Part shown: positions 2 through 17,692 of the stretch, one piece after another
Position numbering within the stretch: position 1 is the first letter of the stretch
Layout of the letters: each line of letters begins with the position of its first letter
Assembly: GCA_002347125.1 (NCBI GenBank)
Contig: DDXG01000263.1
Span: forward strand, 1 to 56,041
Direction of reading: 5' to 3'
Source of the DNA: Phycisphaerales bacterium UBA2266
Lineage (GTDB): Bacteria; Planctomycetota; Phycisphaerae; Sedimentisphaerales; Anaerobacaceae
Length of the DNA: 56,041 nt
The notes under the pieces: model-generated
Database searches by the model: none
Seen by the model: only the letters and a program-made list of their open reading frames with translations
What the model was told of the DNA's origin: nothing
Position numbers and translations under genes: made by a program

Positions 2-1198
2 CGCTTTTTCGAGCGCCTGGCCCTTCTGGGCCGGTTCCGGAAAAGGTTTTTCGCGGCGACGGCATTCAACGAGGGCGTGGAGATTCTCGCGCAGACCGCC
101 GCCAACCTGGCGAACAAAAAGGTTGGCGCGCTGATCGTGATTCAGGGACACGATCCGCTGGACCGGCATCTCACGGGGGGGCACCGTCTGAACGGTATCC
201 TCAGCCAACCTCTGCTGGAAAGCATCTTCGACCCCCATTCGATCGGGCACGACGGCGCCGTCCTTGTCGACGGCAACCGGCTGATGCGGTTCGGCTGCCA
301 CCTTCCCCTCTCGGCGGACGCATCGCAGTACGGAGGTCTGGGTCTCCGACACACGGCGGCCCTCGGCCTGTCGGAGCGGTCCGACGCCATCTGCATCGTG
401 GTCTCCGAGGAGAGGGGGACCATTTCCATCGCCCAGGGGGAGCGCATCCGGCAGATCCCCAACGCCTCCGCCCTGCGCGTCGAATTGGAGTCCTTCTACG
501 CCTGGCGGAACCCGCCCACCAAAACGGGGCCGGTCGTCCGCTGGCTGAAGGAAAACCAAAGGGAGAAGGTGATTGCCGTCGTGCTCGCCTGCACGCTCTG
601 GGCCATCTTCGGATACCAGCGGGAGACGATCCGACGGGATTTTACAGTTCCCATCGAGTACCGGAACCCACCGGCGGAGTGGGTCATCGAAGAGCCTCAG
701 GTGACGACCGCAAAGATCATGCTGACGGGACACGCCCAGGCCTTCCAGCTCCTGCGTGAGGACGAGCTCAAGATCTCGGTGGATATGGCGGATGTCAAGC
801 CCGGGAAACAAGAGGTTACGCTGACCCGCGCCATGGTCAGGGCGCCCTCCAACCTCACGGTCGCCGGGATCAGCCCGGATCGCATCACGGTCGTCACGTC
901 CCGCCTGATCTCGAGGACCATCCCCATCGAGGTCCTGACGGAAAACGCCCCCCCGCAAGGGTTCATCGTCCAGAAGATCACCGTAACCCCGACCGAAGCG
1001 AGGGTTCTCATCCCGCGCCGTCTCAGCGACAAGAGGATCCGGATCATGACGGAGCCGATCGACCTATCGCAACTGGACGTCCAAAGGGCCTTCACGCCGT
1101 CTCTGCGGTACCCGACGGATATTCAGTTTGCAGGAGGGAAAACGCCCGCCGTCCGGGTCGTCGTCTCCACGCTTCAAGGACCCGCGCCGACCCGGTAG
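2..1198 (+). CDS. Diadenylate cyclase (DAC/DisA_N) domain fused to a TM helix and YbbR-type (CdaR-like) repeats; the 5' end lies outside the window
   Basis: The frame is open from nt 2, so the listed GTG at 77 is not the true start. DAC signatures: KKVGALIVI, HDGAVLVDG, GLGLRHTAALGLSERSDAICIVVSEERGTISIA. These are followed by a hydrophobic helix (VIAVVLACTLWAIFGY) and beta-rich repeats (FTVPIEYRN...ISPDRITVV; IPIEVLTEN...ITVTPTEARVL...TEPIDLSQL) typical of YbbR domains. Confidence 0.8.
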   Translation, partial: RFFERLALLGRFRKRFFAATAFNEGVEILAQTAANLANKKVGALIVIQGHDPLDRHLTGGHRLNGILSQPLLESIFDPHSIGHDGAVLVDGNRLMRFGCHLPLSADASQYGGLGLRHTAALGLSERSDAICIVVSEERGTISIAQGERIRQIPNASALRVELESFYAWRNPPTKTGPVVRWLKENQREKVIAVVLACTLWAIFGYQRETIRRDFTVPIEYRNPPAEWVIEEPQVTTAKIMLTGHAQAFQLLREDELKISVDMADVKPGKQEVTLTRAMVRAPSNLTVAGISPDRITVVTSRLISRTIPIEVLTENAPPQGFIVQKITVTPTEARVLIPRRLSDKRIRIMTEPIDLSQLDVQRAFTPSLRYPTDIQFAGGKTPAVRVVVSTLQGPAPTR

Positions 1199-1204
1199 AG
1201 ATCC

Positions 1205-2683
1205 TCAGCGGTATGTCTCTTTTCTGATCCCGTATCTGCGCAGGAGTTTGCTGATCTGGCGAACCGTTACGCCGGCGGATTCCGCTGTCCGGTTGATCCG
1301 GCCGCCGTTTCGGGCGAGGAGCTCCCGGAGATACGTTTTCTCAGCCTCCGCGACGGCCCGCGCTCGCACCTCCGACAGCTTCATGCCGATACCCGCGGAC
1401 GGTGGGGCGGTCAAGGGAAGGCCGGCGAAGAGTTCCGCCGGAAAACTGGCCGGGGTCAGGATCGAGGAAGTCTCCAGGATGCAGGCGCGTTCCACCAGGT
1501 TTTCCAGTTCCCGGATGTTCCCGGGCCAGGAATATCGCTGAAACGCCTCCATCACCTGGGGCTGCACATAGTGGATTCCCCTGTGGTTGAACCGGTTCAT
1601 TTTCCGGAGGAAGATTTCCGTGAGCTGCGGGATATCTTCCCGGCGCTCCCGGAGCGGCGGGATCTCAATCGGAAAGACATTCAACCGGTAAAAGAGGTCG
1701 TTCCGGAAGAGACCCTGCTCCACCATCTGTCCGAGATCCCGGTTCGAGGCGGCGATCACCCGCACATCGGTTTCAATGACCGCCTCGCCTCCGACCCGCT
1801 GAAAGGTCCGCTCCTGAAGAACCTGAAGGAGTTTGATCTGCGCGGCGGGAGTGATCGTGCCGATTTCGTCGAGGAAGATCGTCCCCCCGTGGGCCAGCTC
1901 GAACTTCCCCAGCTTCCGCCGAACGGCGCCGGTAAAAGCTCCCTTCTCGTGGCCGAACAGTTCGCTCTCGAGCAGCGAGTCGCTGAGGGCGGCACAGTTG
2001 ACCCGGATATAGGGCCCGGCGGCGCGTCGGCTCTTGTAGTGAACCAGATAGGCGATCAGCTCCTTGCCGACGCCGCTTTCTCCGGCGATCAGAACGGGGG
2101 CGGAGGTAACGGCCACGCGCTTGGCCAGTTCCACGCACTGGATCATGCGTGGGCTTCGTCCGATGATCTCGAAGAGGCAGCCGCGGCCTTCACGCGCGGC
2201 GGCGATCTTTGCGACACCGTGGTTCGGCAGGTATGTATCGAGCAGATGTTCAAAGCGGCCGCGGTCGACGGGCTTGACCAGAAAATCGCAACAGCCCAGA
2301 CGCATGGCGTCGACAGCCGTGTCGATGCCGGACGAAAGCAACTCGCGTATCGGAGCATCACGGGGGGGGGTGGCATCGCCGAGCATGACGACGGGTAATT
2401 CGGGAGCGGTTTGGCGGATGCGCGACAGGAGCGAGAGTCCGGCGGCCGGCGATCCGGCGGTTGAGCCAATCGCTCCGGCGATGAAAGCGGCATCCACAAC
2501 ACGCTTGTCCACATATTCCATGGCCGCGGCCGCGTCGTCCACGAGATAGGCGAGGATGCCTTTGCGGGCGAGTATCTCCAGCATGAGCCGCCCGGACTGG
2601 GGGTCGCCGTCCACGATCAGGACGCTGGCCGTGGCGTTGGGCCGTTCAAGCCGGATATCCGGGTTTGCGGGGTTACTGCTCAT
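1205..2683 (-). CDS. Sigma-54-dependent enhancer-binding protein (NtrC/FleQ-FlrA class): degenerate receiver + AAA+ + Fis-type HTH
   Basis: Walker A GESGVGKE, sigma-54 contact loop ESELFGHEKGAFTGA, Walker B TIFLDEIG, C-terminal HTH NRTAESAGVTVRQISKLLRRYGI. The ATG at 2683 overlaps the stop of the upstream gene (2673) by 11 nt. Confidence 0.9.
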   Translation of the reverse strand: MSSNPANPDIRLERPNATASVLIVDGDPQSGRLMLEILARKGILAYLVDDAAAAMEYVDKRVVDAAFIAGAIGSTAGSPAAGLSLLSRIRQTAPELPVVMLGDATPPRDAPIRELLSSGIDTAVDAMRLGCCDFLVKPVDRGRFEHLLDTYLPNHGVAKIAAAREGRGCLFEIIGRSPRMIQCVELAKRVAVTSAPVLIAGESGVGKELIAYLVHYKSRRAAGPYIRVNCAALSDSLLESELFGHEKGAFTGAVRRKLGKFELAHGGTIFLDEIGTITPAAQIKLLQVLQERTFQRVGGEAVIETDVRVIAASNRDLGQMVEQGLFRNDLFYRLNVFPIEIPPLRERREDIPQLTEIFLRKMNRFNHRGIHYVQPQVMEAFQRYSWPGNIRELENLVERACILETSSILTPASFPAELFAGLPLTAPPSAGIGMKLSEVRARAVAEAEKTYLRELLARNGGRINRTAESAGVTVRQISKLLRRYGIRKETYR

Positions 2684-3680
2684 TCTGGACGATTCCCTCG
2701 ACCTTGGACAACTGTCGGGCTTGGGCTATTTCGGTTCTGCACTGTTCGAGCAAGTCGAGCGGTTTGTCTTGGACCAGCCAGCCGATGAGTTCCATCTGTG
2801 TTTTGGCAATGGCCACCCACGGGGACTGGGGGAATTCCCGGAGCAGGGCCCGGTAGGATTCCATCGCCGCGGCGGCGTCAGTCTCGTGCAGACACTTGCC
2901 CCGCTGGAGCAGCGTCCAAGCGCGATCGTCGGCGGTGCGACGGTCGTTCGGGTCCATGACCGCAAGCAGCTTGCCGTAGAGCGCGGCCGCCTCGGGCTTG
3001 CGTCCGCTGCGAAGGAGCACCTCGGCCAGGGTCAGTGCGTCGGCCACGGGGCGAGAGGCGTCGAGCTGCTTGCGGACCTCGGCGGCCGTGGCTTCCGTGA
3101 TTCCATCGCCCACAGCCGATGCCGAGGCGATTGCCCTTGGCCCGGTGGTTTGCCAACGGGGGCTATGTAATGCCTGATTCGCATCTGCCGGTATCGGCGG
3201 TACGGTGTTTGGATCGGTGCGCTGTCTGCAGGCTTGGCCGTACCGCTCGCCGGCGTCTTCGTCCGGATGGTCTCCCAGGTCGATCCGCACGGAACGGACC
3301 ATCTCAATCAGTTGCCGTAGCGCCTCACGGCTATCGGACGGCCTGGCTGTCTGGGGGGCGGCGACGCGCTCCTTCCATGCCGTCACGGTTTGCTTATTGG
3401 CGGTGATCTGTTCGAAGGAGGCAGTGAAGGCGTTGGTGTCCGCCGCGACAGGCGTATTGGCTGCTTCGGCCGCGGGGTTGGCGTTCGGATCGATGCCCGC
3501 GGAGTTGGGGTCCGCAATGGCTGTTGGGGCGTTCGGTTCCGTGCTCGGCAGCGGAATTGGGTTGGGGGTCGCCAGGGCCGGTGTGTGCGAGGACGCGAAC
3601 AGCAGTATGAGGAGGATTGACGCGACGCCGCCGTCAAACCGGAAACCCCATGCTCGCCTTGTATGGTCTTCGATATACAT
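2673..3680 (-). CDS. Hypothetical signal-anchored/secreted protein with a Pro/Ala/Asn-rich linker and a C-terminal TPR/YbgF-like region
   Basis: The N-terminal hydrophobic segment VASILLILLFASSHTPALA is followed by low-complexity sequence. The C-terminus (AEVLLRSGRKPEAAALYGKLL...YRALLREFPQSPWVAIAKTQMELIGW) looks TPR-like. The gene sits between two overlapping or tightly spaced genes of the same operon. Confidence 0.6.
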   Translation of the reverse strand: MYIEDHTRRAWGFRFDGGVASILLILLFASSHTPALATPNPIPLPSTEPNAPTAIADPNSAGIDPNANPAAEAANTPVAADTNAFTASFEQITANKQTVTAWKERVAAPQTARPSDSREALRQLIEMVRSVRIDLGDHPDEDAGERYGQACRQRTDPNTVPPIPADANQALHSPRWQTTGPRAIASASAVGDGITEATAAEVRKQLDASRPVADALTLAEVLLRSGRKPEAAALYGKLLAVMDPNDRRTADDRAWTLLQRGKCLHETDAAAAMESYRALLREFPQSPWVAIAKTQMELIGWLVQDKPLDLLEQCRTEIAQARQLSKVEGIVQNEQ

Positions 3681-3699
3681 ATTGCTGTGGACTTCGATT

Positions 3700-6261
3700 T
3701 CAGCGGGTGGCGTAATCGGTTGAGACGGCGCCGACGGGTGTTGCCATGCTCGACGTCTGCGTGGGCACGTCGGCGGGCTTCCATTGCCCGATCAGAGCCT
3801 GCGCGGCCCGCTCATAGTCGCGCCGGCGGGCATAGGCGTGCGCCAGCAGCCGGAGAGTTTGCTGCTTGAGGTCGTCCGACGGGTCCGACTGGAGCAACTC
3901 CAGGCACATCCCCACGGTTTGCTCGTCGCGGCCCAACTCGAAACAGGCGGCAGCCAGTTCTTGTTGCACGGTCTGAGCGGTGGGTCCCGGCGCGGCGTAG
4001 ATGAGTATGTCGCTGAGACACTGAGCGGCGTCGTCGGTGCGGCCCTGGGCCTTGAGGGACCGGGCCAGTTCCAGATTTGCACGGGCTTTGAGTTCAGGGT
4101 CGACCAGATACTGCACGCGGTGGCGGATGAGTCCGGCGGAGGTGTCCGCCAGTCCGATCCGGCACAGTACACGGGCCTTGAGCAGGACGACCTCGAGTGC
4201 GTGTTCCTGTGAGAACTGCTGGGCTTCAGAGATGTCGAGGATATCGAGGGCTTCGAGGAACTCCTCGGCGGCCATGTGGGCCCGGACGAGGGTCAGGAGC
4301 GTCTCAACGTATTGCTCTTTGGACGACATGCCACGAAGCGCCAGCCGTAGGACTTTCTTGGCTTCATCGGCCCGGCCGAGCTCCATGTTGGCCTTGCCTA
4401 GCATCAGGCAGGCCCCGGGGAGGTTGCGCGACCGCATGTCCTTGACGAGGTTGACGTAGCGGGTGAGCCATTTGACGGCGTCCGCATATTCCTTCTGATT
4501 GTAGAGGCCCGTGCCGGCCCCTAATGCAGCGGCCTGCTGGGTGTCTGCGGAGACGGCCACGTTATAAACCTTGGTGTAGAGTCTCACGGCCTCGGCGGCC
4601 ATGCCTGTCTTGAGGGTGGCGTCGGCCAGGTACAGGCACGCACGGTCGGCGAACGATGTGTCAGGGTACTGCTCGACAAGCTGCTGAAGGTCCTTCTGAG
4701 CGCCCGGGTAATCCATGAGGTTGGTGCGAACCCGGCTGGAATTCAGGAGGGCGTACGGAGCCAGGCCGTTGCGAGGAAACCTGTTGGCGACCATCTTGTA
4801 CTCGGCGATAGCCTCGTCGGGGCGTCCAGCCTGCGTCTGCATCAAGCCGAGGGCGAAGTGGACGTTGGCCATGCGGTCATCGGCGTGGTGCTTGAGGGAG
4901 AATCGGCGCCACAGGCGGATGCACTCTTCGGTCAGGGTGGCGATGTGCTCGGACAGGGAAGTGTACTCGGCAGGGTCCGTCAGGGTCAGGAGACCCCTTT
5001 CGTCGGCCTGAACGAGCAGGCCGCTGCACCCGGCAACGAGGGCTGCTATGTCGTCCATCGGCGCATCGGAGGCGTAGAGTACGACCGCTCGCTTGCGGAC
5101 TCCCACGGAGTCGGCGCCCAGGTCCCGGCGCACGTCCAGGCCCGCATTGGCGGCGAAACGGGCGAGAAGTTCTTCCATGGGCGCGCCGTTGCACACGACT
5201 GTGAAGAGGCGGCCGCCTTTGCCGTCGTCGCTATCCTGGACTTCAGGCCCCAGCATGGCTGACTCGAGCCTGGCTCGTCCGGCATCCAAGCATTGCCGAA
5301 TCTGTTTCTCCTTGATCCCCTGTACTGGGTCGTTGGTGAGACTGCCGGCCGTCCAGAGTTCGGCGGGGCAGTCCTTGTCGATATCGCGGAGCGTGAGGAC
5401 TTGTCGGGTCAGGGCCTGGGCCGTGATGAAGCCACAGTCCCGTCTCAAGGCCTCAAGGTGGTCTTGGGGAAGACCTGTGCTCTGAACCAGTGCGTAGGCC
5501 TGATACGCGGCCATTCTTGCGGAGAGGAACTGCTTCTTCTCGAATTCGATCTGGCTGCGATGGTAGTAGGCCAAGGCCCGGACGAAGGGTGAGGCGCTGG
5601 AGGATATCTGTCGCAACAGCAGGCCGGCGGACTCCAATTCCGCCTTCCTACTGAGGCAAAGGGCCATCTTCAGCGTCAGGAAGTCCCGCATCATGGTCTC
5701 AGCGGGCTGTTCGGCCAGGCCGGCGGCCAACTGCTGATAGGCTGCGTACGCCTGCTCGTAGTCCTTCTCGGCATAGAGACCTTCGGCAACGCTCAGCGAG
5801 ACGGCCGATAAGGCCGGCACCGGGGCCTGCTGCATCAACTCGGCAGCTTCGGTCGGCCCGCCGGGGGTGTAGGGTGGAATATGGGCCCGCGGTTCGGCAT
5901 CGACGCCCTTGGGCTGCGTGGGCGGACTGTCAGGCGGCGACGCGACCCGGCGTCCGATGGACCGTGCCAGAAACGGGTAGAGCATGACAGCCGCGACGGC
6001 TAGAATCGTGGCGGCCAGGAGTATCTGAGCCCGTGAGAAGCGGGGGCGAGCAAATGGTTCGCGGAATGAGCCGATTTCCTCAGCGGATTCGCTGACGCTG
6101 GGACGTTCAACGGGACGCACGACCTGCTTCAAGAACGGCAGCTCAGTGGCGAACACGTCTTCATCGGTCAAGTCCTCGCTTACCGTAGCAGCGAAGAGCT
6201 CCTGGTCGCTGGGCGCCGGGTCATTGTGGCCTTGGGTCCTGTTGTGCTCTTCGTCCGTCAT
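3700..6261 (-). CDS. Large TPR-repeat protein with a single N-terminal TM anchor (853 aa)
   Basis: TM helix ILLAATILAVAAVMLYPFLA lies at about aa 90. Many TPR-like helical pairs follow (AYAAYQQLAAG..., ALGLMQTQAGRPDEAIAEYKMVANRFP..., MLGKANMELGRADEAKKVL..., ACFELGRDEQTVGMCLELL...). It is the first gene of the leftward operon, 19 nt upstream of the next gene. Confidence 0.75.
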   Translation of the reverse strand: MTDEEHNRTQGHNDPAPSDQELFAATVSEDLTDEDVFATELPFLKQVVRPVERPSVSESAEEIGSFREPFARPRFSRAQILLAATILAVAAVMLYPFLARSIGRRVASPPDSPPTQPKGVDAEPRAHIPPYTPGGPTEAAELMQQAPVPALSAVSLSVAEGLYAEKDYEQAYAAYQQLAAGLAEQPAETMMRDFLTLKMALCLSRKAELESAGLLLRQISSSASPFVRALAYYHRSQIEFEKKQFLSARMAAYQAYALVQSTGLPQDHLEALRRDCGFITAQALTRQVLTLRDIDKDCPAELWTAGSLTNDPVQGIKEKQIRQCLDAGRARLESAMLGPEVQDSDDGKGGRLFTVVCNGAPMEELLARFAANAGLDVRRDLGADSVGVRKRAVVLYASDAPMDDIAALVAGCSGLLVQADERGLLTLTDPAEYTSLSEHIATLTEECIRLWRRFSLKHHADDRMANVHFALGLMQTQAGRPDEAIAEYKMVANRFPRNGLAPYALLNSSRVRTNLMDYPGAQKDLQQLVEQYPDTSFADRACLYLADATLKTGMAAEAVRLYTKVYNVAVSADTQQAAALGAGTGLYNQKEYADAVKWLTRYVNLVKDMRSRNLPGACLMLGKANMELGRADEAKKVLRLALRGMSSKEQYVETLLTLVRAHMAAEEFLEALDILDISEAQQFSQEHALEVVLLKARVLCRIGLADTSAGLIRHRVQYLVDPELKARANLELARSLKAQGRTDDAAQCLSDILIYAAPGPTAQTVQQELAAACFELGRDEQTVGMCLELLQSDPSDDLKQQTLRLLAHAYARRRDYERAAQALIGQWKPADVPTQTSSMATPVGAVSTDYATR

Positions 6262-6348
6262 GGGGCGCGTCGTTCAGATACGGCGTGAGTCCCCCGGCCC
6301 GGTGCCGGGTCAGTGCGCAAAGAGCTCACGTTGTGTTTTTCTGGTGGA

Positions 6349-6363
6349 GCAAGGTGCGTGCCA
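6349..6363 (-). promoter_or_regulatory. Candidate sigma-54 (-24/-12) promoter driving the leftward operon (TPR protein, secreted protein, sigma-54 activator)
   Basis: The minus strand reads TGGCACgcaccTTGC (plus strand GCAAggtgcGTGCCA), an exact match to TGGCAC-N5-TTGC. It lies about 85-100 nt upstream of the ATG at 6261. Confidence 0.7.
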
Positions 6364-6670
6364 GGGGCGATGAACGCGGCGTCAAGGTAGCCGAACATTC
6401 CATTCCGGGCTGTAAGGCGTGGTGGTTCCACGCGAGAGGGGGATTGCCTGGGCACGCGGGCTGTCGGGATTCCATACAGGCCATTCGCTTTTCCGACAGG
6501 CGATGGGAGCTGCCGCGCTGCGGCCGGCGTCTTGGGGCCTTTGTGCCTTTGAGAGACCAGAAGAGCCACGTTCCTAATCAATAACTCAGGAACTACAGGA
6601 CATTGTCCACGGATCAGGCGTGAGACTGGTCCGCCCGAGGCCGTCGGCAGGTCCCTCGGGTTCGGATAGG

Positions 6671-6695
6671 CCGGCACAATCTTCCGTTGTGGCGG
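6671..6695. promoter_or_regulatory. Imperfect inverted repeat, candidate enhancer (UAS) site for the sigma-54 activator
   Basis: CCGGCACAAt-cttccg-tTGTGGCGG has 8 of 9 arm positions complementary. It lies about 125-150 nt upstream of the -24 element at 6820. A further TTGTGCC half-site (reverse complement of GGCACAA) sits at 6541-6547. Confidence 0.25.
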
Positions 6696-6756
6696 AAGAA
6701 GCGTCCCGACCGGATGGCCGGCTGGGGGGCGAAGTGGCACCTCGTCACAGCGAGCC

Positions 6757-6790
6757 AATTAATCTAAGTGCTTTAATAATAGTAGTTTAC
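6757..6790. promoter_or_regulatory. AT-rich tract between the candidate UAS and the sigma-54 promoter (possible DNA-bending/IHF-type site)
   Basis: AATTAATCTAAGTGCTTTAATAATTAGTAGTTTA is the only strongly AT-rich patch I saw in the window. It lies 30-65 nt upstream of the -24 element. Confidence 0.3.
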
Positions 6791-6819
6791 GTCATGTCGA
6801 TTGCGATGGACAGCGACTT

Positions 6820-6835
6820 GGCACGCGGGTTGCAA
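6820..6835 (+). promoter_or_regulatory. Candidate sigma-54 (-24/-12) promoter for the flgD-flgL operon
   Basis: TGGCACgcgggTTGCA is an exact match to TGGCAC-N5-TTGC. It ends 68 nt upstream of the flgD ATG at 6904. Confidence 0.75.
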
Positions 6836-6903
6836 AGAGGTGAGGGCGGGTCGGCCCGCTTGTCTGGTCCGACACAACGATCACCCTCTACAGGACATAT
6901 GGC

Positions 6904-7287
6904 ATGAGCGAAGTTGCGGCGACTCAGTCAGCGGGCACGATGCAGGCCGATTACATGCGGCTGCTGGTGGCCCAACTTCGGCACCAGAATCCGCTGGAGC
7001 CTCTGGACAACAACGAGATGGCCTCGCAGATGGCGTTGTTCTCGCAATTGCAGCAGCTCGAGACGATGAACGGCAGTTTCAGCCAGGTGCTTCGGATTGT
7101 GGAGAGAGACTACGCCGGCAGCCTGATCGGGAAGGTTGTGAGCTTCATAGGCGACACGGGCATGGGCGTGTCAGGTGTTATAAGTGGCGTTGTAGAAACG
7201 GTTTACAATGATGTAGATGGCGATACGGTCCTGTCCGTCGGCGACCACGCGGTCAGCCTCAAGGACGTAATCGCCGTACAGAACTAG
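6904..7287 (+). CDS. flgD: Flagellar hook assembly/capping protein FlgD
   Basis: The N-terminal FlgD signature YMRLLVAQLRHQNPLEPLDNNEMASQMALFSQLQQLE is present. An AGGA lies 7 nt upstream of the ATG, and the gene is immediately upstream of flgE. Confidence 0.9.
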   Translation: MSEVAATQSAGTMQADYMRLLVAQLRHQNPLEPLDNNEMASQMALFSQLQQLETMNGSFSQVLRIVERDYAGSLIGKVVSFIGDTGMGVSGVISGVVETVYNDVDGDTVLSVGDHAVSLKDVIAVQN

Positions 7288-7306
7288 AGAATAGAGGAGT
7301 CAACAC

Positions 7307-8980
7307 ATGAGTTTCGCACTTTCAGCAGGTGTCAGCGGTCTTCAAGCTCATCAACAGATGCTGGATGTTGCGGGCAACAACCTGGCGAACGTCAACACGA
7401 CGGCGTACAAATCGCACCGGATCATCTTCTCGGAGCTTCTGAGCGAGACGATCAAGAAGGCGTCGCAGCCGACGAGCACGATCGGCGGGACCAACCCGCA
7501 GCAGATGGGCAGCGGCGTGGGGGTGGCCGGGACGAGCCCCAACATGAGCCAGGGCAACATTGTGAATACGGGCAACCCGCTGGATATGGCGATCGAAGGG
7601 GAGGGGTTCTTCGTGCTCAGCGACGGGCAGCGGAAGGTCTACACGCGGGCGGGGACGTTCGCGGTGGATGCCAACTCGAACCTGGTGGACCCGGCGACGG
7701 GTTTCCTGGTCCAACGGATCGGTTCGACCGGCGAGGCCGACACGTTTCAGAGGGCCGGTGACAGCCACGTCAAGATTCCGTACGACGTAGCAATGGCAGC
7801 CAAGGCGACCACGTCGGTGACGGTGGCCGGCAACCTGAGCGCCGACCAGGTTAACACCGTCAACGGACCGAACAAGCTGGCGTCGAACGTCGTGTTCACG
7901 GAGAACAGCGGGACGAAGGCGTCGAGCAGCACAAAGCTGATCGATCTGGACCAATGTTCGAGCGGCAGTCTGGACGGCAGCACTATCACGGTTACGGGCT
8001 ACGACCACGACGGTACGGCGCTGACGCCGGCAACGATTACGCTGGCGGACACGATGACGCTCAGCGACGTGGTCACGGCCCTGGGCGCGGCGCTGGGAGC
8101 GACAAACGCCAAGGCATCATTCAGCGACGGACAGATTGTCGTCACGGATGTGAAGAGCGGCTACAGCAAGTCGGACGTCAAGCTGACGTTCAACCAGGGC
8201 ACGGCGACGTCGGAGCTTGAACTGCCGTCGTACTTTGAGATCGCCAACGTCGGCGGCGAGGCGGTGCAGGATGTCTCGATCACCGTGTACGACAGCCAGG
8301 GCGGACGACATACGCTGTCGGCCGCGCTTGTACGGACGGAGACGCCGAATACGTGGGACATGGTACTGACCTCGATCACGGGCAATGTGCATAATATCAC
8401 CGACCGGCGGATCGAGGGGATTCAGTTCGATACGACGGGCTACTACTCGGGTCTGGATACGGCCATCGGGGATTCGGCGTTGTTCTCGGTGACGTTCGAC
8501 CACGACAAGAGCAATACGCAGAGGATCGGGCTGTCGCTGGGAACGCCGGACATGCTGGACGGCTTGACGCAGTTCGCGGGCAACAGCACGGCCGTGGCCC
8601 GGGGCCAGGACGGGTATGAATCGGGCAAGTTGTCCACGGTCTCGGTGAACAACGAGGGGATTCTGATCGGCGCATTCTCCAACGGCGTCAAGAAGGAGAT
8701 CGCCGCTTTGCAGGTCGCGTTGTTCCAAAACACGACGGGTTTGGAGAGCATCGGCAACGGTTACTTCATTCCTTCGGCGAACTCGGGAGATCCGGCGGCG
8801 ACACAGGCGTTGAGCGGTGGGGCCGGATCAATTCACGGCGGGGCGCTGGAGAAGTCCAATGCGGACGTGGCGACCGAGTTCGTGACGATGATTGAGGCGC
8901 AGAACGGTTTTCAGGCGAACGCCCGGACGATCCGGGTGGCCAACGACATTCTGAGGGAATTGACGAACCTCATCCGGTAG
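7307..8980 (+). CDS. flgE: Flagellar hook protein FlgE
   Basis: The N-terminal axial-protein motif is SGLQAHQQMLDVAGNNLANVNTTAYK. The C-terminal motif is SNADVATEFVTMIEAQNGFQANARTIRVANDILRELTNLIR. The RBS is AGGAG. Confidence 0.95.
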   Translation: MSFALSAGVSGLQAHQQMLDVAGNNLANVNTTAYKSHRIIFSELLSETIKKASQPTSTIGGTNPQQMGSGVGVAGTSPNMSQGNIVNTGNPLDMAIEGEGFFVLSDGQRKVYTRAGTFAVDANSNLVDPATGFLVQRIGSTGEADTFQRAGDSHVKIPYDVAMAAKATTSVTVAGNLSADQVNTVNGPNKLASNVVFTENSGTKASSSTKLIDLDQCSSGSLDGSTITVTGYDHDGTALTPATITLADTMTLSDVVTALGAALGATNAKASFSDGQIVVTDVKSGYSKSDVKLTFNQGTATSELELPSYFEIANVGGEAVQDVSITVYDSQGGRHTLSAALVRTETPNTWDMVLTSITGNVHNITDRRIEGIQFDTTGYYSGLDTAIGDSALFSVTFDHDKSNTQRIGLSLGTPDMLDGLTQFAGNSTAVARGQDGYESGKLSTVSVNNEGILIGAFSNGVKKEIAALQVALFQNTTGLESIGNGYFIPSANSGDPAATQALSGGAGSIHGGALEKSNADVATEFVTMIEAQNGFQANARTIRVANDILRELTNLIR

Positions 8981-8984
8981 TCGG

Positions 8985-10379
8985 GTGATCGGCGCGGATA
9001 ACCGCATGATTCATTCAGTGATGAACACAACGGTGGGGTTGGCACTCAGCGTCGGCGGCCTGATGGTCCCGGGGCCGGGCATCCTGGCGCAGTTGACGCC
9101 TCGCGAGCGATGGGAGGCGATGCAGGGCTATGAGACGGTGATGAGCGAGCGATGGTTCACGATCGGCGGACTGGTGGCGATTGCGTTTCTGTCGGCATTG
9201 CTGTTCTATGTAACATACCGCCGCAAGAGGCAGGAGTTGCGCGTCTCCGGCCGGATGTTTGACGAATATGCGAGGAAATGCGGATTGACGGTTCGCGAGA
9301 AGATAATGTTGCGGGAGATTGCACGCCGCGCGGGGGTTCGCCGGGATGAGTCCATCTTCACGCTCGGCAGCGCATTTGACCGGGGGGCCGGCCGGATGGT
9401 TCAGGAACAGCTTGACGGGGAGCCTTCGCCGGAACAGGTTCGGGAACTGCGGATGGAGTTATCGTTCGTGCGGGAGAAGCTGGGATTCAAGATGTGCCCA
9501 TCCCCCGCGGCGGGCACGGCGGTGGCGGACAGCTCTCAATTGACCAGCCGCCAGATTCCGGCGGGGCGCAAGATTCACATGACCCGGCGACGCGACCGCG
9601 ACGGCGAGATTGAGGCGACGGTGGTTGAGAACACGGACACGGAACTGGCGGTGCGGATGAGCTGCAACGTCAAAGTAACGTTTGGGGAGTTCTGGTGCGT
9701 GCGGTACTACTTTGGAGCGTCGGTGTGGGAATTCGATTCCTCGGTCATCAGTTTTGACGGAGACGTGCTCGGACTGGCCCACAGCGAGAGCGTGCGGTTC
9801 ATCAACCGTCGGCGCTTTCTGCGGGTGCCGGTTCACCGGCAGGGGTATGTCGCGAGTTTCCCATTCCTGGCGCCTCGCGATGAGACCGGAGCGCAGCGGA
9901 GCCGGGCGGCGCAGCCTGCCGATGGGGCCGGTCACGGGGCGGACGGCTCCTGGGGGCCTCCGACGTTCGTACCGGCGGTCATCACCGAGCTGGCGGGGCC
10001 GGGTCTGCGGGTCGAGGCGCCGCTGAAGGTCAAGAGCGGCGACCGCATGCTGGTGATATTCAACCTCGATGAGGATATTGAGGCGGGCGCATCGGCGTCG
10101 ACAGGCCCGTACAAGCACATGGGCAAGATCGTGGAGAATGTCGGCGAAGTCCGCCACGTTACGCCGACAGTCGAAGGGTCGTCGATTGCGCTGGAACTGA
10201 CGTTCCTCAGCGACGCAGCGGTGGGTGAGTTGATCCGGGCCACCAACACGGCGGCCGTGAAGGCGCGGGTCGTGCGCGGCGCGGCGGGCGACGGCACCAC
10301 GACAGGGACGCCGCGGGCCGACGACGAGACATTCGCGTCGTCGGCGCCCGCTGTGGAGAAGGAGGCCGACCATGTCTGA
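8985..10379 (+). CDS. Membrane-anchored PilZ-domain protein (YcgR-like two-barrel architecture) embedded in the flg operon
   Basis: TM helix WFTIGGLVAIAFLSALLFYVTY. PilZ-type RRRFLRV at nt 9807-9824. A degenerate second motif ELAGPG lies at 9987-10004 where (D/N)xSxxG is expected. The start is uncertain (GTG 8985, ATG 9006 or ATG 9021). The stop overlaps the flgF ATG by 8 nt. Confidence 0.7.
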   Translation: MIGADNRMIHSVMNTTVGLALSVGGLMVPGPGILAQLTPRERWEAMQGYETVMSERWFTIGGLVAIAFLSALLFYVTYRRKRQELRVSGRMFDEYARKCGLTVREKIMLREIARRAGVRRDESIFTLGSAFDRGAGRMVQEQLDGEPSPEQVRELRMELSFVREKLGFKMCPSPAAGTAVADSSQLTSRQIPAGRKIHMTRRRDRDGEIEATVVENTDTELAVRMSCNVKVTFGEFWCVRYYFGASVWEFDSSVISFDGDVLGLAHSESVRFINRRRFLRVPVHRQGYVASFPFLAPRDETGAQRSRAAQPADGAGHGADGSWGPPTFVPAVITELAGPGLRVEAPLKVKSGDRMLVIFNLDEDIEAGASASTGPYKHMGKIVENVGEVRHVTPTVEGSSIALELTFLSDAAVGELIRATNTAAVKARVVRGAAGDGTTTGTPRADDETFASSAPAVEKEADHV

Positions 10380-11103
10380 GCTGACCGATCAGATCGGGGC
10401 CACACTCGAGCAACTTGGGATACAATTCGAGGCGATCGCGCATAATCTGGCCAATGCAGGCACGGTCGGGTACAAGCGTCGGATCAGCTCGTTTACGCAG
10501 GCGCTGGCGGAGGCGGGCGTTCCCATGCCCGACGCCGGATACGACATCGACGCCACGACGGTGTACGATTTTTCCCAGGGGTCGGTGACTGAGAGCGGGC
10601 GGCCGCTGGACGTGGCGCTGGAGGGCAAGGGTTTCTTTGTGATCGAGACACCGGACGGGCCGCTCTACACGCGCAGCGGAGTGTTCGGTCTCAACGGCGA
10701 TAATCAGATTGTCGATCTCTCGGGCCGGCCGGTGGCGGGCAGCCGCGGACCGATCTCGGTGCCGCCCCAGACGGCACCGTCGGCGATCCATGTCACGGCC
10801 GACGGTGCGGTGCAGGCCGACGGCATTCAGATCGACAGCTTCAAACTCGTGAGCTTCAAGGAGGAGGACGAGAAGGCCCTTGTGTCCGTCGGAGAGGGCT
10901 GTTTTCGTGCGCCCGCCGGTGCGCGACCTGAAACGTCCGAGGGCCTGACGGTTCGCCAGTATTGCCGCGAGGCCTCCAATGTCCAGCTTATGGAGGAGAT
11001 GGTCAACATGCTGATGGTCTCGCGGCTCTATCAGGCCAATACCCGCGTGCTGTCGGCCACAAAAGACGTCGGCGGCAGCCTCATGAGCGTAGCCATGGGT
11101 TGA
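10372..11103 (+). CDS. flgF: Flagellar basal-body rod protein FlgF
   Basis: The N-terminus reads AIAHNLANAGTVGYKRR and the C-terminus reads SNVQLMEEMVNMLMVSRLYQANTRVL. The size (243 aa) and the position before flgG both fit. Confidence 0.9.
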   Translation: MSELTDQIGATLEQLGIQFEAIAHNLANAGTVGYKRRISSFTQALAEAGVPMPDAGYDIDATTVYDFSQGSVTESGRPLDVALEGKGFFVIETPDGPLYTRSGVFGLNGDNQIVDLSGRPVAGSRGPISVPPQTAPSAIHVTADGAVQADGIQIDSFKLVSFKEEDEKALVSVGEGCFRAPAGARPETSEGLTVRQYCREASNVQLMEEMVNMLMVSRLYQANTRVLSATKDVGGSLMSVAMG

Positions 11104-11137
11104 CCGCCATCACGCAAGTTCGAAGGAGCAAACCACG

Positions 11138-11926
11138 ATGCTCAAAGCATTCTCAACCGCCGCGACAGGCATGAGCGCCCAGGAGTTGATGATCAATGTC
11201 ACGGCCAACAACCTGGCGAACATCAACACGAACGGCTTCAAGCGCAGCCAGGTGGACTTTCAGGACCTGTTGTATGTGCACCTGCGGCAGGCGGGCGCGG
11301 AGATGTTCTCCGGCCAGGCGTCGCCCGGGGGCATGGAGGTCGGCTCGGGCGTGCGGGCCGCCTCGACGGTGAAGGTGTTCAGCCCGGGCGAGCTGGTCAA
11401 CACGACCCGTCCGCTGGACCTGGCCATCACGGGCGAGGGGTTCTTTCAGATATCCATGCCGGATGGCACGACCCGGTATACCCGCGACGGGGCCTTCCAG
11501 AAGGGTCCCAACGGCGAGTTGATGACGGCCACCGGCTATCTGTTGGATCCGCCGATTACGATCCCGACCGATGCCGTGGCGGTGACGATCGGTAAGGACG
11601 GTAGTGTCAACGTAACCGACCCATCAGGCACGCAGTCGGTGGTCGGCAGCATCCAACTGGCGAATTTCCCCAACCCGTCGGGGCTGTCCAGCGAGGGCGA
11701 CAACCTTCTGGCGCAGACGGAGGCCAGCGGCACGGCCGTGACGGGTATTCCGGGCAACAATGGCCTAGGACTGATTCAAGGCGGGTTTCTGGAGAAGTCC
11801 AACGTGCAGATGGTGACGGAATTGGTGAATCTCATCACCGCCCAGCGGGCCTACGAGGTCAGTTCGCGGGCCATCCGGGCGGGCGACCAGATGCTCCAGA
11901 CCGCCATACAGACCGGCAGCTTCTAA
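11138..11926 (+). CDS. flgG: Flagellar distal rod protein FlgG
   Basis: TAATGMSAQELMINVTANNLANINTNGFKRSQVDFQDLLY, then SNVQMVTELVNLITAQRAYEVSSRAIRAGDQML. The protein is 262 aa and the RBS is AAGGAG. Confidence 0.95.
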   Translation: MLKAFSTAATGMSAQELMINVTANNLANINTNGFKRSQVDFQDLLYVHLRQAGAEMFSGQASPGGMEVGSGVRAASTVKVFSPGELVNTTRPLDLAITGEGFFQISMPDGTTRYTRDGAFQKGPNGELMTATGYLLDPPITIPTDAVAVTIGKDGSVNVTDPSGTQSVVGSIQLANFPNPSGLSSEGDNLLAQTEASGTAVTGIPGNNGLGLIQGGFLEKSNVQMVTELVNLITAQRAYEVSSRAIRAGDQMLQTAIQTGSF

Positions 11927-11938
11927 GCTGAGGCAACC

Positions 11939-12919
11939 ATGAGACATAGAGCAACTATCCTGGGTTTGATGCTGAGCGCCGCCTTCGCGGGATGGCCGGC
12001 GGCCGCCGAAAGCGGCACGGGGCCGGGATTGCGGATTCATCTGCCGCGGCAACTGACAATCGAGAACGACGTGCCCACGCTGGGACAGGTGGGAGTGCTT
12101 CTGGGCGAAGAGGGGCTGCTGGACCGGGCCTCGAAGGTGACATTGGGGCGTATCGCCATGCCGGGACAGGAAATCACGGTCAGTCGGACCGTGATACTGA
12201 GCCGGCTGGCGGCGGCGGGGCTGGACGCCTCCTGCGTAGTGTTTTCGGGAGCCGACAGCGTTAAGGTCTCGCGGCCGCACCGGACTGTAACGGGCGGCGA
12301 TTTCGTCCAGTTCGCGTCGGCGTACCTCGATTCGGCGCCGAAGGCTCCCGGAGTTCGCGCCTTTGAGCCGGTGGCGGCGCCTCCGGATCTGGTTCTGGCG
12401 GAACCCCAACCCGCGCTGACATTCACCGCATCGTCGGCCAAGAGCCCGGCGGCCAACCTGGCCATCATCGAGATTCAAGTCAGGCAGGGTCAGACCGTGG
12501 TGGACAGCCGGCGCATCGTATTTCGGGCCAGGTACAATCACCGCACCGTCAAGGCGACGGCCGACATCGCAGCCGGCGACCTGGTCACGAACGACAACGT
12601 CCTGATTGAGACCGTGGCCTCGGACTATCCCGAACCGGCGGACTGGACGGCGCCTTACGGTCTGGTGGCGCGACATCCCATCGCGGCCGGCGGCACGATC
12701 CGGCCGGACATGCTCACGTCGCCCAGGCCCCAGGCCATCGTCAAACGCAACCAGAACGTCGTCATTCAGATCGACCGACTCGGTCTGCTCATCACCGCGA
12801 CGGGTCGCGCCCTTCAGGAGGGCGCCACCGGGCAGTTTATCAAGGTTCAGAACATCGACTCGCAGCGGGTTATCATCTGCAAGGTCCGCGACGAAGGCAC
12901 GGTGGAGCCGGTGTTCTAA
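11939..12919 (+). CDS. flgA: Flagellar P-ring assembly chaperone FlgA (SAF domain)
   Basis: Signal peptide MRHRATILGLMLSAAFAGWPAAA. The C-terminal SAF/FlgA motif is IAAGGTIRPDMLTSPRPQAIVKRNQNVVIQIDRLGLLITATGRALQEGATGQFIKVQN. Confidence 0.85.
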   Translation: MRHRATILGLMLSAAFAGWPAAAESGTGPGLRIHLPRQLTIENDVPTLGQVGVLLGEEGLLDRASKVTLGRIAMPGQEITVSRTVILSRLAAAGLDASCVVFSGADSVKVSRPHRTVTGGDFVQFASAYLDSAPKAPGVRAFEPVAAPPDLVLAEPQPALTFTASSAKSPAANLAIIEIQVRQGQTVVDSRRIVFRARYNHRTVKATADIAAGDLVTNDNVLIETVASDYPEPADWTAPYGLVARHPIAAGGTIRPDMLTSPRPQAIVKRNQNVVIQIDRLGLLITATGRALQEGATGQFIKVQNIDSQRVIICKVRDEGTVEPVF

Positions 12920-12932
12920 GCAAGGAGTGATA

Positions 12933-13547
12933 ATGAAGATACGGATGCTCTTTGTCATCATGATCTGGGTCGTTGCGGCGGCGTTGCGGCCGGTGGCTGC
13001 CGATTCCATTTACGCCAGGCGACTTGCGGTTTCGCGTTCGCTCTACGCGGACGACACCGCCCGCAAGATCGGCGACGTGCTGACGATCGCCGTTACCGAG
13101 GACAGCAAGATCGACAACAAGGCGAAGCGCGACCTCAAGAAAGAAGTCAGCCGGTCCACGACGTTTGACGGAGAGCTGGGTATCGACCATATCCTGCCGA
13201 GCATTCCGGGGTTCACCATGTCGGCGAAATCCGCCAATGAACTCAAGGGCAAGGCGGACTACAAGGACGAGCGCAGCTTCACGGATATGATCACGGTCGT
13301 CGTGATGGATGTTATGCCCAACGGCAACCTCGTCGTGATGGGAACGCGAAGCCGCAACATCGCCGACGACCTCCAGGTTATCGAGGTCAGCGGCATCGTC
13401 AAGCCCAGCGACATCAGCTTTGAGAACGTCGTCAAGAGCGAACAGGTGGCCAACTTCCGGATCGTGACGCGACACTCCGGCGTGGCCGCTCCATACAACA
13501 AGCCCGGCTGGCTGGGCTCGATATTCGACAAGGTCTGGCCCTTCTGA
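12933..13547 (+). CDS. flgH: Flagellar L-ring protein FlgH
   Basis: I moved the start from the listed 12606 to ATG 12933, which is preceded by AAGGAG (12922-12927). Signal peptide MKIRMLFVIMIWVVAAALRPVAA. FlgH motifs: IGDVLTIAVTEDSKIDNKA, GNLVVMGTRSRNI, VSGIVKPSDISFENVVKSEQVAN. Confidence 0.9.
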   Translation: MKIRMLFVIMIWVVAAALRPVAADSIYARRLAVSRSLYADDTARKIGDVLTIAVTEDSKIDNKAKRDLKKEVSRSTTFDGELGIDHILPSIPGFTMSAKSANELKGKADYKDERSFTDMITVVVMDVMPNGNLVVMGTRSRNIADDLQVIEVSGIVKPSDISFENVVKSEQVANFRIVTRHSGVAAPYNKPGWLGSIFDKVWPF

Positions 13548-13548
13548 T

Positions 13549-14724
13549 GTGGATGGAATGATGGAACGCTGTGAAGGTCAAATCATGAGGCTCCGGCAAG
13601 GATACGCCGGATCGGCGAGCTTCGCGCGGGGCTGGCTGCTTGTGGCGGCGGTTCTGTGTATGGCTTCGGCCGGCCGCGCTGAGCGCATCAAGGACATTGT
13701 CGATATTCAGGGTGTCCGCGATAACCCGTTGACGGGTTTCGGCCTGGTGGTGGGGCTGGCCGACACGGGCGATTCGAGTGTGCCGTCCAGACAGGTGCTT
13801 GCCAGCCTGCTGCGCAACGACAGCATCACCGTCTCGCCCTCGGACCTGATTACGGGCAACCTGGCGCTGGTGCTGGTCAGCGCCAAACTAGGGCCGTTCG
13901 ACCGGGAGGGGATGCGGCTGGATGTGGATGTGTCGTCCGTGGGCAACGCCAAGAGCCTTCAGGGGGGGATGCTGCTGCCGACAGAACTCAAGGGTCTCGA
14001 CGGCGACGTGTACGCCGTGGCCTCGGGTCCGGTGAGTCTGGGCGGATGGGGGGCCTCCGGCAGTCAGGCGTCGGTGTCCAAGAACCACCTGACGGTCGGG
14101 CGGATCGCCGGCGGGGCCACCGTCGAGCGTGCGGAGCTGTCGCAGTTCTGGCAGACCACGCCGCAGGGCCGCTTTATTACGCTGCTACTTCGAAACAACG
14201 ACTTTGCGACGATAGAACGTATCGGCAAGGCGATCAACCAATTATACCCGGATGCCGCGCAGGTGGCGGATGCCGGGGCTGTTCGCGTCCGCATCCCGGA
14301 GGCTGTTCCCACATCGGGCATTGCCGGGTTCATCGATCATATCTGCCTGCCGGAGGTGAAGGTGGACTATCCCGCCGTGGTCGTGATCAACGAACGCACC
14401 GGCACTATCGTCGTGGGCGAGAACGTGGGCATCTCGCCGGTAGCCATCTCGCAGGGCAGTCTGGTGGTCAAGGTCAAGGAGACGGAGGTTGTTTCGCAGC
14501 CGACGGCCCCGTTCTCGAACGCCGGCACGACCGAGCGGGTGCCGGATACGTTCGTCGGCGTCGAAGAAACCGAGACCTATCTGATTCCCGTCGAGCACGT
14601 TGTTACCGTATCGGAATTGGCCAAGGCGCTGAACGCCATCGGCGCGACGCCGCGCGATCTTGTGGCAATCTTCAACGCCCTCAAGGCGGCCGGTGCGCTG
14701 CAGGCCAGAATTGAACCGATGTAG
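13549..14724 (+). CDS. flgI: Flagellar P-ring protein FlgI
   Basis: ERIKDIVDIQGVRDNPLTGFGLVVGLADTGDS, SLQGGMLLPTELKG, LAKALNAIGATPRDLVAIFNALKAAGALQARIE. The start may instead be ATG 13585 (MRLRQGY...), which has GAAGG upstream. Confidence 0.9.
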   Translation: MDGMMERCEGQIMRLRQGYAGSASFARGWLLVAAVLCMASAGRAERIKDIVDIQGVRDNPLTGFGLVVGLADTGDSSVPSRQVLASLLRNDSITVSPSDLITGNLALVLVSAKLGPFDREGMRLDVDVSSVGNAKSLQGGMLLPTELKGLDGDVYAVASGPVSLGGWGASGSQASVSKNHLTVGRIAGGATVERAELSQFWQTTPQGRFITLLLRNNDFATIERIGKAINQLYPDAAQVADAGAVRVRIPEAVPTSGIAGFIDHICLPEVKVDYPAVVVINERTGTIVVGENVGISPVAISQGSLVVKVKETEVVSQPTAPFSNAGTTERVPDTFVGVEETETYLIPVEHVVTVSELAKALNAIGATPRDLVAIFNALKAAGALQARIEPM

Positions 14725-14736
14725 GATGGACTGTCC

Positions 14737-15084
14737 ATGAGTGTCGACCATTTGACCGCGAACTCGCCCGTGAGCGTCGCGAACCTTGTTGGCAAGTTCG
14801 ATACCACCGCTCCGATCATAGACGCCAAGAAGATGGAGTTCGCCAAGCAGTTCGAGTCGGTTCTGATGCACCGTGTTCTGGAGCAGATGAAGGAATCGGT
14901 CGGGCAGTGGGGTTTTGAAGTCGATGGAGCGGCCGCTCAGACGTACGACTTGTTCTGGTTCCACCTGGCCGACGAATTGGGCCGGCAGGGGGGCTTGGGT
15001 CTTTGGAAGCAGATCTATCAGTCGCTGCAAGCGGATGGGGTAGCCGCACCGGGTAAACCGCTTGATCAGGGGCAGGGCGTGTGA
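14737..15084 (+). CDS. flgJ: FlgJ-like rod-binding protein (N-terminal Rod_binding domain only, no muramidase domain)
   Basis: KKMEFAKQFESVLMHRVLEQMKES...LADELGRQGGLGLWKQIYQSL matches the FlgJ N-terminal rod-binding region. The protein is only 115 aa, and its position after flgI fits. Confidence 0.7.
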   Translation: MSVDHLTANSPVSVANLVGKFDTTAPIIDAKKMEFAKQFESVLMHRVLEQMKESVGQWGFEVDGAAAQTYDLFWFHLADELGRQGGLGLWKQIYQSLQADGVAAPGKPLDQGQGV

Positions 15085-15091
15085 GGCCACG

Positions 15092-15643: not shown

Positions 15644-15697
15644 CAAGAGGCGTTTCACAGTACTGAAAAAGGCCATGCACGGCCTGAAGATGGAACC

Positions 15698-17668: not shown

Positions 17669-17692
17669 CGGCGTCGAATGTGAAGGATTGCG

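Follow-up and report, generated by a model that had tools for sequence, protein, structure and literature searches.

Whether the rod and hook genes of the flagellum are under sigma-54 control in the Phycisphaerae, and which activator would exert it, are the questions raised by a 56,041-nucleotide stretch of DNA from Phycisphaerales bacterium UBA2266 (assembly GCA_002347125.1, contig DDXG01000263.1), referred to here at its full length as the window. Two sigma-54 elements of the -24/-12 type lie within a single 642-bp intergenic region (6262-6903) between flgD and the gene for a large tetratricopeptide repeat (TPR) protein, TPR853, and each is oriented toward its flanking gene. Judging from sequence comparisons, these elements, named P_TPR and P_flgD, are probably functional sigma-54 (RpoN) promoters of a flagellar regulon conserved across the Phycisphaerae.

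6363-6349, minus strand: P_TPR, sigma-54 -24/-12 element TGGCACGCACCTTGC; exact match, best matrix score, conserved in the clade.
6819-6833, plus strand: P_flgD, sigma-54 -24/-12 element TGGCACGCGGGTTGC; exact match, matrix score, conserved in the clade.

An earlier note on this DNA had described two perfect TGGCAC-N5-TTGC elements in the intergenic region. When both strands of all 56,041 bp were searched, these were the only two exact matches in the window, compared with 0.18 expected from dinucleotide shuffles, of which 1 in 100 reached two. The motif with up to two mismatches was not enriched (52 found versus 58.8 expected, which is background), and thus only the two exact sites stand out. 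Scoring with a sigma-54 weight matrix placed P_TPR (16.8 bits) and P_flgD (15.5 bits) as the top two sites of the window, followed by a site of 14.4 bits. The GG and GC dinucleotides fall at 6362-6361 and 6350-6349 in P_TPR and at 6820-6821 and 6832-6833 in P_flgD, 10 bp apart in both elements, as sigma-54 -24/-12 promoters require. The coordinates given earlier for the minus-strand element (6363-6349) were correct, but the plus-strand element occupies 6819-6833 and not 6820-6834. The two elements have the extended sequence TGGCACGC in common, in agreement with the shared extended motif that the earlier note had reported. From the GC dinucleotide to the start codon, the distance is 70 nt for flgD (ATG at 6904) and 87 nt for TPR853 (ATG at 6261).

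Conservation was examined in 79 loci from GTDB species representatives, collected with a TPR853 profile. All were of the Phycisphaerae type, with TPR853 identities mostly of 36-44%, and the homologues came from Phycisphaerae, Sedimentisphaerales and Planctomycetota metagenome-assembled genomes. Synteny was retained, with flgG...flgE-flgD on one strand and TPR853, TPR335, EBP2, fliL, fliM, (fliN), flhA, a gene denoted x and fliA on the other. Upstream of flgD, 57 sequences were compared (56 loci and the window); the best site within 350 nt scored 12.9-18.1 bits in all 57 and at least 15 bits in 55 of them. Counting one locus missed by the extraction, the flgD promoter was present in 58 of 58 loci. 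A sigma-54 element, typically TGGCACAATTATTGCT, was likewise found upstream of the TPR gene in 69 of the 70 loci with enough sequence. The distance from element to start codon in these relatives was 43-130 nt for flgD and 73-173 nt for the TPR gene. Elsewhere in the related loci, 2.78 Mb with both strands counted, only 12 sites reached at least 15 bits.

In anchored alignments, the information was concentrated in TGGCAC and TTGC; the spacer and flanks drifted, and the genomes ranged in GC content from 0.40 to 0.65. Near-invariant -24/-12 bases amid drifting flanks are, on these alignments, the signature of selection on the -24/-12 elements. In line with the reading of both elements as sigma-54 promoters in the earlier note, they behave as genuine ones, their position and orientation being conserved in about 60-70 Phycisphaerae species. 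A sub-threshold match, TGGCTCGATTTATGCT, recurred in many loci within the 5' portion of EBP2; it was rejected as a promoter and attributed to codon conservation (..ARFML..).

Enhancer-like elements were detected upstream of both promoters by k-mer enrichment combined with anchored inspection.

6462-6498, minus strand: UAS_T, a 37-bp palindromic enhancer-like element, TGTCGGAAAAGCGAATGGCCTGTATGGAATCCCGACA; clade consensus, inverted repeat I1.
6673-6706, plus strand: UAS_D, two tandem dyads upstream of P_flgD; clade consensus, inverted repeat I3.
6756-6805, plus strand: AT-rich spacer between UAS_D and P_flgD; clade consensus at -62 to -25.

Counted from the T of TGGCAC in P_TPR, UAS_T runs from -135 to -99, with its centre about 117 bp upstream. 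Its clade consensus, TGTCAGAAAATCtrTCGGctCGTATAGAATCCTGACA, was found at this offset in 63 loci. The copy in the window reads TGTCGG...CCGACA, occurs once in the window and lies within a 41-nt block that is near-identical between the window and the relative L004, with diverged flanks. In L073, where flgD and TPR853 are separated by 7.5 kb, an extra copy of the palindrome was observed at 5246-5282, 4.6 kb upstream of the usual copy.

The two dyads of UAS_D, GGCACAATCTTCCGT at 6673-6687 (offset -146) and CGGAAGAAGCGTCC at 6693-6706 (offset -126), correspond to the clade consensus GGCAAAATTTTCTGG at about -147 and AGGAAAATTTATCC at about -127, a spacing of 20 bp that most of the 57 sequences keep; GC-richer variants of the dyads occur in GC-rich genomes. 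Inverted repeat I3 is TCTTCCG/CGGAAGA. UAS_D is centred about 130 bp upstream of P_flgD, and the block is conserved with L004. UAS_T and UAS_D differ in architecture, a 37-bp palindrome as opposed to tandem 14-15-bp dyads, and have the half-site ATTTTCTG in common. Conserved dyads at fixed offsets of about 100-150 bp are what would be expected of activator-binding enhancers, and from these features we infer activator binding at both. The core of the AT-rich spacer in the window is CTAAg-N13-AtAGtAGTTtAC (6763-6790), for which the clade consensus is CTAAC-N13-CAAGAAGTTAT. The spacer may be a candidate site for a DNA-bending protein; comparison with the consensus of integration host factor yielded no convincing match.

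The leftward operon had been described in the earlier note as ending in a gene for a sigma-54 enhancer-binding protein (EBP), the open reading frame (ORF) at 1205-2683. Neither that position nor the ORF as a native gene held up on comparison with related records.

1-1925, no strand assigned: foreign DNA outside the flagellar locus; Syntrophaceae-like cdaA/ybbR and the 3' half of an activator.
1926-1967, no strand assigned: chimeric junction; 42 nt common to both parents, encoding LESELFGHEKG.
1926-2683, minus strand: genuine 5' part of EBP2, with an atypical receiver and the first AAA+ half up to GAFTGA; L001 identity, Pfam.

The foreign DNA contains a Syntrophaceae-like cdaA/ybbR gene, which runs from beyond the window edge to 1198 on the plus strand, and the 3' half of an unrelated sigma-54 activator on the minus strand (1205-1925). 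The window was compared with three records assembled from the same population: an ENA 200-kb contig (L001), JGI 3300002821 (L002) and Logan SRR5324028 (L003). L001 was 99.98% identical over window positions 1926-16261, and L002 and L003 were comparably near-identical, L003 as far as its contig reaches; none of the three matched 1-1925. The activator of L001-L003 is a 496-aa protein that includes an HTH_8 domain; downstream of its gene come fliL, fliM, fliN, flhA, an 81-aa ORF, fliA and small ORFs. In L004, which is 77% identical, the activator is likewise followed by fliL-fliM-fliN-flhA-x-fliA. With the ORF being chimeric and the native operon running on to fliA, the activator is not the terminal gene.

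The hybrid ORF of the window encodes 492 aa, of which the first ~252 residues match the real activator before switching exactly at ELFGHEKGAFTGA. Its foreign C-terminal half (1205 to ~1925) is 83-99% identical to proteins of Syntrophaceae, Syntrophales and Deltaproteobacteria, and in their genomes an activator gene of this type and a 487-aa cdaA gene converge, the arrangement also seen at 1-2683 of the window. A JGI contig, L084, was 97.7% identical to window positions 1109-1967 and then continued into an N-terminus of its own. The junction falls in the stretch that is best conserved among all sigma-54 activators. Metagenome contigs contained no match to an exact 38-nt pattern taken from the foreign half, and exact-protein look-ups of the cdaA fragment and the hybrid activator returned no match; homologues of the C-terminal half settled the origin of the left end. 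The cdaA/ybbR gene (1-1198) is not one of this organism's own genes. Any inference from the hybrid activator "gene" is unsafe, as it is a cross-phylum chimera joined inside the stretch coding for GAFTGA.

The native activator, EBP2, has an unusual receiver. In the hybrid ORF, Pfam identified Response_reg in the native part and Sigma54_activat across the join; EBP2 overall carries GAFTGA, Sigma54_activat, AAA_lid_14 and HTH_8. As read by alignment to the receiver of Escherichia coli NtrC, EBP2 lacks the phospho-acceptor Asp (Asp54 equivalent): of 67 sequences, 66 have Ser, Gly or Ala there (Ala in the window), and the position adjoining it is not consistently Asp either. No histidine kinase gene was found at the locus.

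A second activator gene, EBP1, lies between flgD and TPR853 in most of L005-L082, on the same strand as TPR853 (for example, L009:8098-9549). EBP1, about 480-500 aa long, combines a receiver-like domain with an HTH_8 domain and an AAA+ domain that bears GSFTGA. Its receiver keeps the acceptor Asp without the acidic pair, the Thr and the Lys. The helix-turn-helix is highly conserved in both EBP1 and EBP2, and was therefore uninformative as a guide to which of them binds the more conserved enhancer. The foreign C-terminal half of the hybrid ORF was considered as a candidate for EBP1 and rejected, being 35-38% identical to EBP1 and EBP2 alike.

In the relatives that carry EBP1, P_TPR sits between the EBP1 stop codon and the TPR853 start codon. 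Where both promoters were present (55 loci), they lay a median of 2,168 bp apart, and an intervening EBP1 ORF was detected in 42 of these loci; no sigma-54 site above 9 bits was found upstream of EBP1 in those 42. Back-to-back promoters were found only in the window and in L004 (464 bp). The back-to-back layout that the earlier note had described is thus real in the window but is not a general feature, the promoters of most relatives lying about 2.2 kb apart. Neither the 642-bp spacer nor the rest of the window contained a remnant of EBP1, and the gene is also missing from the L004 locus. As reconstructed from these loci, the back-to-back arrangement is the product of a lineage-specific loss of EBP1 from the locus. 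One further conserved element of the relatives lies on the EBP1 side of the flgD-EBP1 spacer, about 225 bp upstream of P_flgD, and a diverged copy was found in the window:

6590-6611, plus strand: diverged copy of the conserved ~-225 element; clade consensus yTTATGGGACGT-N7-GTCAC.

This element might be a promoter or operator of EBP1; its spacing does not fit a standard sigma-70 promoter.

On the basis of these features, a regulatory scheme can be proposed. Sigma-54 holoenzyme would sit on both -24/-12 elements as closed complexes, and an enhancer-bound AAA+ activator, equipped with a GAFTGA loop and a helix-turn-helix of the Fis type, would loop to the closed complex and open it with ATP. P_flgD would drive the 12-kb hook, rod, ring and junction operon from flgD to flgL, and P_TPR would drive TPR853, TPR335, EBP2, fliL, fliM, fliN, flhA, x and fliA in the real genome. 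EBP1 would act at UAS_T and P_TPR, leading to production of EBP2, C-ring and export components and sigma-28; EBP2 would then act at UAS_D and P_flgD, and sigma-28 would follow. By analogy with the passage from FlrA to FlrC in Vibrio, this cascade from EBP1 at P_TPR to EBP2 at P_flgD is put forward tentatively, at somewhat less than an even chance. EBP2 may positively autoregulate the operon, with a cascade that starts at EBP1 no less likely. Since neither EBP has a canonical receiver and no kinase gene lies nearby, the activators are probably controlled through a protein partner, as in the FlbD-FliX and FleQ-FleN pairs, and not by phosphorylation.

Some results weigh against this reading. The sigma-54 weight matrix was our own approximation of the published consensus. 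No sigma-70-like sites were found in 6200-6960, which favors the sigma-54 reading, but the sigma-70 consensus used may not fit the Planctomycetota. Given the common half-site ATTTTCTG, one protein could serve both enhancers. Among the best 120 of 1,864 matches in an EBP1 profile search, none came from the 200-kb contig of the window lineage, and a metagenome scan with an EBP1 profile of generic activator motifs recovered only paralogues of at most 47% identity. Finally, a regular expression for the RpoN box, applied to six frames of the window and all fetched loci, gave no match; as no rpoN gene is present in the window or the fetched loci, its presence in the organism can only be presumed.

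The earlier note had proposed a simpler arrangement, in which the activator of the leftward operon drives both promoters, autoregulating its own operon and co-controlling flgD-flgL with no need of another activator. We regard this as doubtful. In its favor, UAS_T is under selection in the window and L004, where no other activator gene is present at the locus, and the ATTTTCTG half-site recurs in both enhancers. However, the premise of a terminal activator was wrong, the ORF being chimeric and the native operon continuing into fliL-fliA; a purely autoregulated sigma-54 operon cannot start; and the two enhancers differ in architecture. Further, most relatives have EBP1, itself without a sigma-54 promoter, directly upstream of UAS_T and P_TPR, which is the layout of a master regulator.

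It is unlikely that an EBP1-type master activator encoded elsewhere in the genome drives both promoters, with EBP2 acting on other flagellar promoters outside the window or serving as an accessory subunit, as FleT does to FleQ in Rhodobacter sphaeroides. FleT is not known to have a DNA-binding domain, whereas EBP2 keeps its highly conserved Fis-type helix-turn-helix, and the distinct enhancer architectures suggest distinct binders. In favor of a single EBP1-type activator, EBP1 adjoins both promoters in most genomes, the enhancers have a half-site in common, and there is a precedent for two activators (cited in PMC3162934, reference 117).

The break at 1926-1967 is very probably an assembly mis-join rather than a real recombination. 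An intact reading frame and an unchanged GC content across the join would fit recombination or horizontal transfer, with the hybrid activator a true gene; this is nonetheless very unlikely, as three separately assembled, 99.9%-identical records run into fliL-fliA, as does L004, and the left part both matches, at 97.7% identity, a metagenome contig with a different N-terminus of its own and shares with Syntrophaceae genomes the synteny of an activator converging on cdaA. A crossover in the 42 nt most conserved among sigma-54 activators is typical of a graph mis-join. Scarcely credible is the notion that the two motifs arose by chance, or owe their conservation to something other than sigma-54: the window is GC-rich and the two-mismatch motif occurs at background frequency, but two exact matches stand against 0.18 expected, conservation in 58/58 and 69/70 loci stands against 12 comparable matches in 2.78 Mb, and sigma-54 activators are encoded alongside.

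It is textbook knowledge for several phyla that rod and hook genes are controlled by sigma-54, and the hook cluster of Caulobacter has divergent sigma-54 promoters (flbG/flaN) that share ftr elements. The proposed cascade from EBP1 to EBP2 has its closest parallels in Vibrio and Pseudomonas. There, FlrA or FleQ activates the MS-ring, C-ring and export genes, a second activator and fliA; FlrC or FleR then acts with sigma-54 at the rod and hook operons, and a sigma-28 tier comes after (PMC7064773, PMC3930126). As in V. cholerae and P. aeruginosa, two sigma-54 activators are encoded in this clade; the first, EBP1, has no sigma-54 site above 9 bits upstream in 42 relatives and is absent from the window locus, and the second shares a sigma-54-dependent operon with fliA and genes for the C ring and export apparatus (in L001-L004 and most loci). 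Like the division into class II and class III in Vibrio, the rod, hook and junction genes lie behind a separate sigma-54 promoter, P_flgD. Unlike in Vibrio and Pseudomonas, there is no gene for an FlrB/FleS-type kinase at the locus, the receivers of EBP1 and EBP2 are degenerate, two TPR proteins head the class-II-like operon and one promoter appears to serve flgD-flgL, in place of separate flgB, flgF and flgK promoters. The phylum also differs.

A second parallel is with FlbD of Caulobacter, which has a receiver-like domain without control by a cognate kinase, binds ftr dyad enhancers at hook promoters and has its activity set by FliX, a partner that reports on assembly (PMC3930126, PMC7064773). 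The degenerate receivers and the lack of a kinase gene at the locus would fit this type, as would the dyad enhancers. In contrast, FliA is present, although it is absent from flagellar control in Caulobacter, the enhancer sequences seem unrelated to ftr, and no FliX homologue was identified. In the FlgS-FlgR system of Campylobacter jejuni and Helicobacter pylori, the rod and hook genes are sigma-54-dependent and the late genes depend on sigma-28 (PMC3930126). FlgR is a phosphorylated response regulator that does not need to bind an enhancer, unlike the situation proposed here, in which the activators would be bound to DNA, as the conservation of both the enhancers and the helix-turn-helix motifs suggests.

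Sigma-54 promoters have been predicted in silico before motility and basal-body genes in Planctomycetia, in a survey whose predictions also extend to the Phycisphaerae (PMC12316311) and which cites an in silico sigma-54 study of Pirellula sp. strain 1. In the parts consulted, these surveys contain no description of this locus, its enhancers, its two-activator layout or its TPR genes. A literature search found no experimental work on flagellar regulation in the Phycisphaerae or other Planctomycetota. Since such control is well known from other phyla and had already been predicted for Planctomycetia, the promoters are of a known kind; their control is familiar in kind and newly documented in this clade. 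New here are a footprint across the clade, both enhancers, a pair of atypical kinase-less activators and the lineage-specific loss of EBP1.

The genes under the two promoters, and the leaders predicted for their transcripts, are as follows:

6904-18877, plus strand: rightward operon flgD-flgL; Pfam and gene calls, with all gaps below 60 nt.
3700-6261, minus strand: TPR853, a bitopic membrane protein, first leftward gene; Pfam TPR, hydropathy, AlphaFold.
2673-3680, minus strand: TPR335, a TPR-like protein with a signal peptide, second leftward gene; Pfam, hydropathy, synteny.
6262-6337, minus strand: predicted 5' leader of the TPR operon mRNA; conserved with L004, predicted start ~6337.
6845-6903, plus strand: predicted 5' leader of the flgD operon mRNA; conserved with L004, predicted start ~6845.

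The rightward operon begins with flgD (6904-7287, plus strand) and continues with flgE, a 464-aa membrane protein, flgF, flgG, flgA, flgH, flgI, a FlgJ-like 115-aa protein, flgN, flgK and flgL. No other strong sigma-54 site was found inside it in the weight-matrix scan. The gene identities given in the earlier note (FlgD, FlgE, FlgF/G, FlgA, FlgH, FlgI, FlgN, FlgK and FlgL, two TPR proteins and an activator) were right. The 464-aa protein between flgE and flgF (8985-10379, plus strand) has one transmembrane helix at about residues 58-76 and no Pfam or NCBIfam match; nearly all related loci encode a counterpart in the same place (34-50% identity).

Both leader starts are predicted positions, that of the TPR operon being taken from the position of the -12 element. 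The TPR leader is highly conserved with L004 and contains a hairpin, CCCGGC/GCCGGG, at 6293-6309 (inverted repeat I4). In many relatives (such as L026 and L029), a conserved leader element, AAGGTTGTGAAATACGCCCTCA, lies at +15 to +45 after P_TPR, sometimes with a GC hairpin inserted; the leaders of the window and L004 differ from this type but are conserved between the two. A small upstream ORF in the conserved leader after P_TPR was rejected, as neither its frame nor its length was conserved. No intrinsic terminators or Rfam families were detected in 6200-6960, and no sigma-28-like TAAA-N15-GCCGATAA was found in the window or in L001.

In TPR853, an acidic N-terminal tail precedes a single transmembrane helix (about residues 77-102), and the large TPR solenoid is predicted to lie in the periplasm. 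Its AlphaFold model (mean predicted local distance difference test score, 71.7) comprises the transmembrane helix, an N-terminal helical domain, the long solenoid and a low-confidence alpha/beta insert at about residues 318-430. A PDB profile search recovered a CpoB/YbgF-type TPR (E = 5e-6), PilF and other generic TPR proteins only, and a Foldseek search with the model gave only generic TPR matches. A relationship to the PflA/PflB periplasmic motor scaffold of Campylobacter was rejected, since the scaffold chain 9hmf_K of C. jejuni ranked 31st with a TM score of 0.20, no better than unrelated TPR solenoids. TPR335 yielded nothing significant.

Orthologues of TPR853 adjoin flagellar genes in all 79 Phycisphaerae loci, and TPR335 is syntenic in the related loci. 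Given this clade-wide synteny with flagellar genes, the suggestion in the earlier note that the two TPR proteins are candidate flagellar partners is reasonable. A more specific role within a kinase-less two-activator cascade, in which TPR853 and TPR335 would act as FliX-like partners that sense assembly and relay the assembly state of the periplasm or envelope to a pseudo-receiver EBP, thereby timing hook and rod transcription, is improbable. If true, it would mean that signals reach a sigma-54 activator by a new route.

Directly downstream of flgL, a sugar-modification island of about 33 kb (19015-52059, plus strand) was observed. Its genes encode TPR-glycosyltransferases, NeuB, a UDP-GlcNAc 2-epimerase, a PglD-like acetyltransferase, DegT aminotransferases, a CMP-sugar cytidylyltransferase, B12/radical-SAM enzymes, 2-oxoacid dehydrogenase E1/E2-like proteins and a PPTase. 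The island probably serves flagellin glycosylation with a nonulosonic acid; no flagellin gene was found in the window. The third-best sigma-54-like site, GGGCATGGGGTTTGCA (19011-19026, plus strand; 14.4 bits), lies in the 137-bp gap after flgL and overlaps the listed ATG (19015) of the first TPR-glycosyltransferase ORF. It could be a promoter of the glycosylation island or a chance match. Farther downstream, six small ORFs of 118-167 aa without a Pfam match lie in a row on the minus strand (52650-55874).

Collectively, the locus offers a compact regulatory map for the whole class, consisting of two promoters, two enhancers, two atypical activators and sigma-28. This map is useful for annotating metagenome-assembled genomes and for picking reporter constructs, and the locus may show how a sigma-54 activator without a kinase gets switched on.

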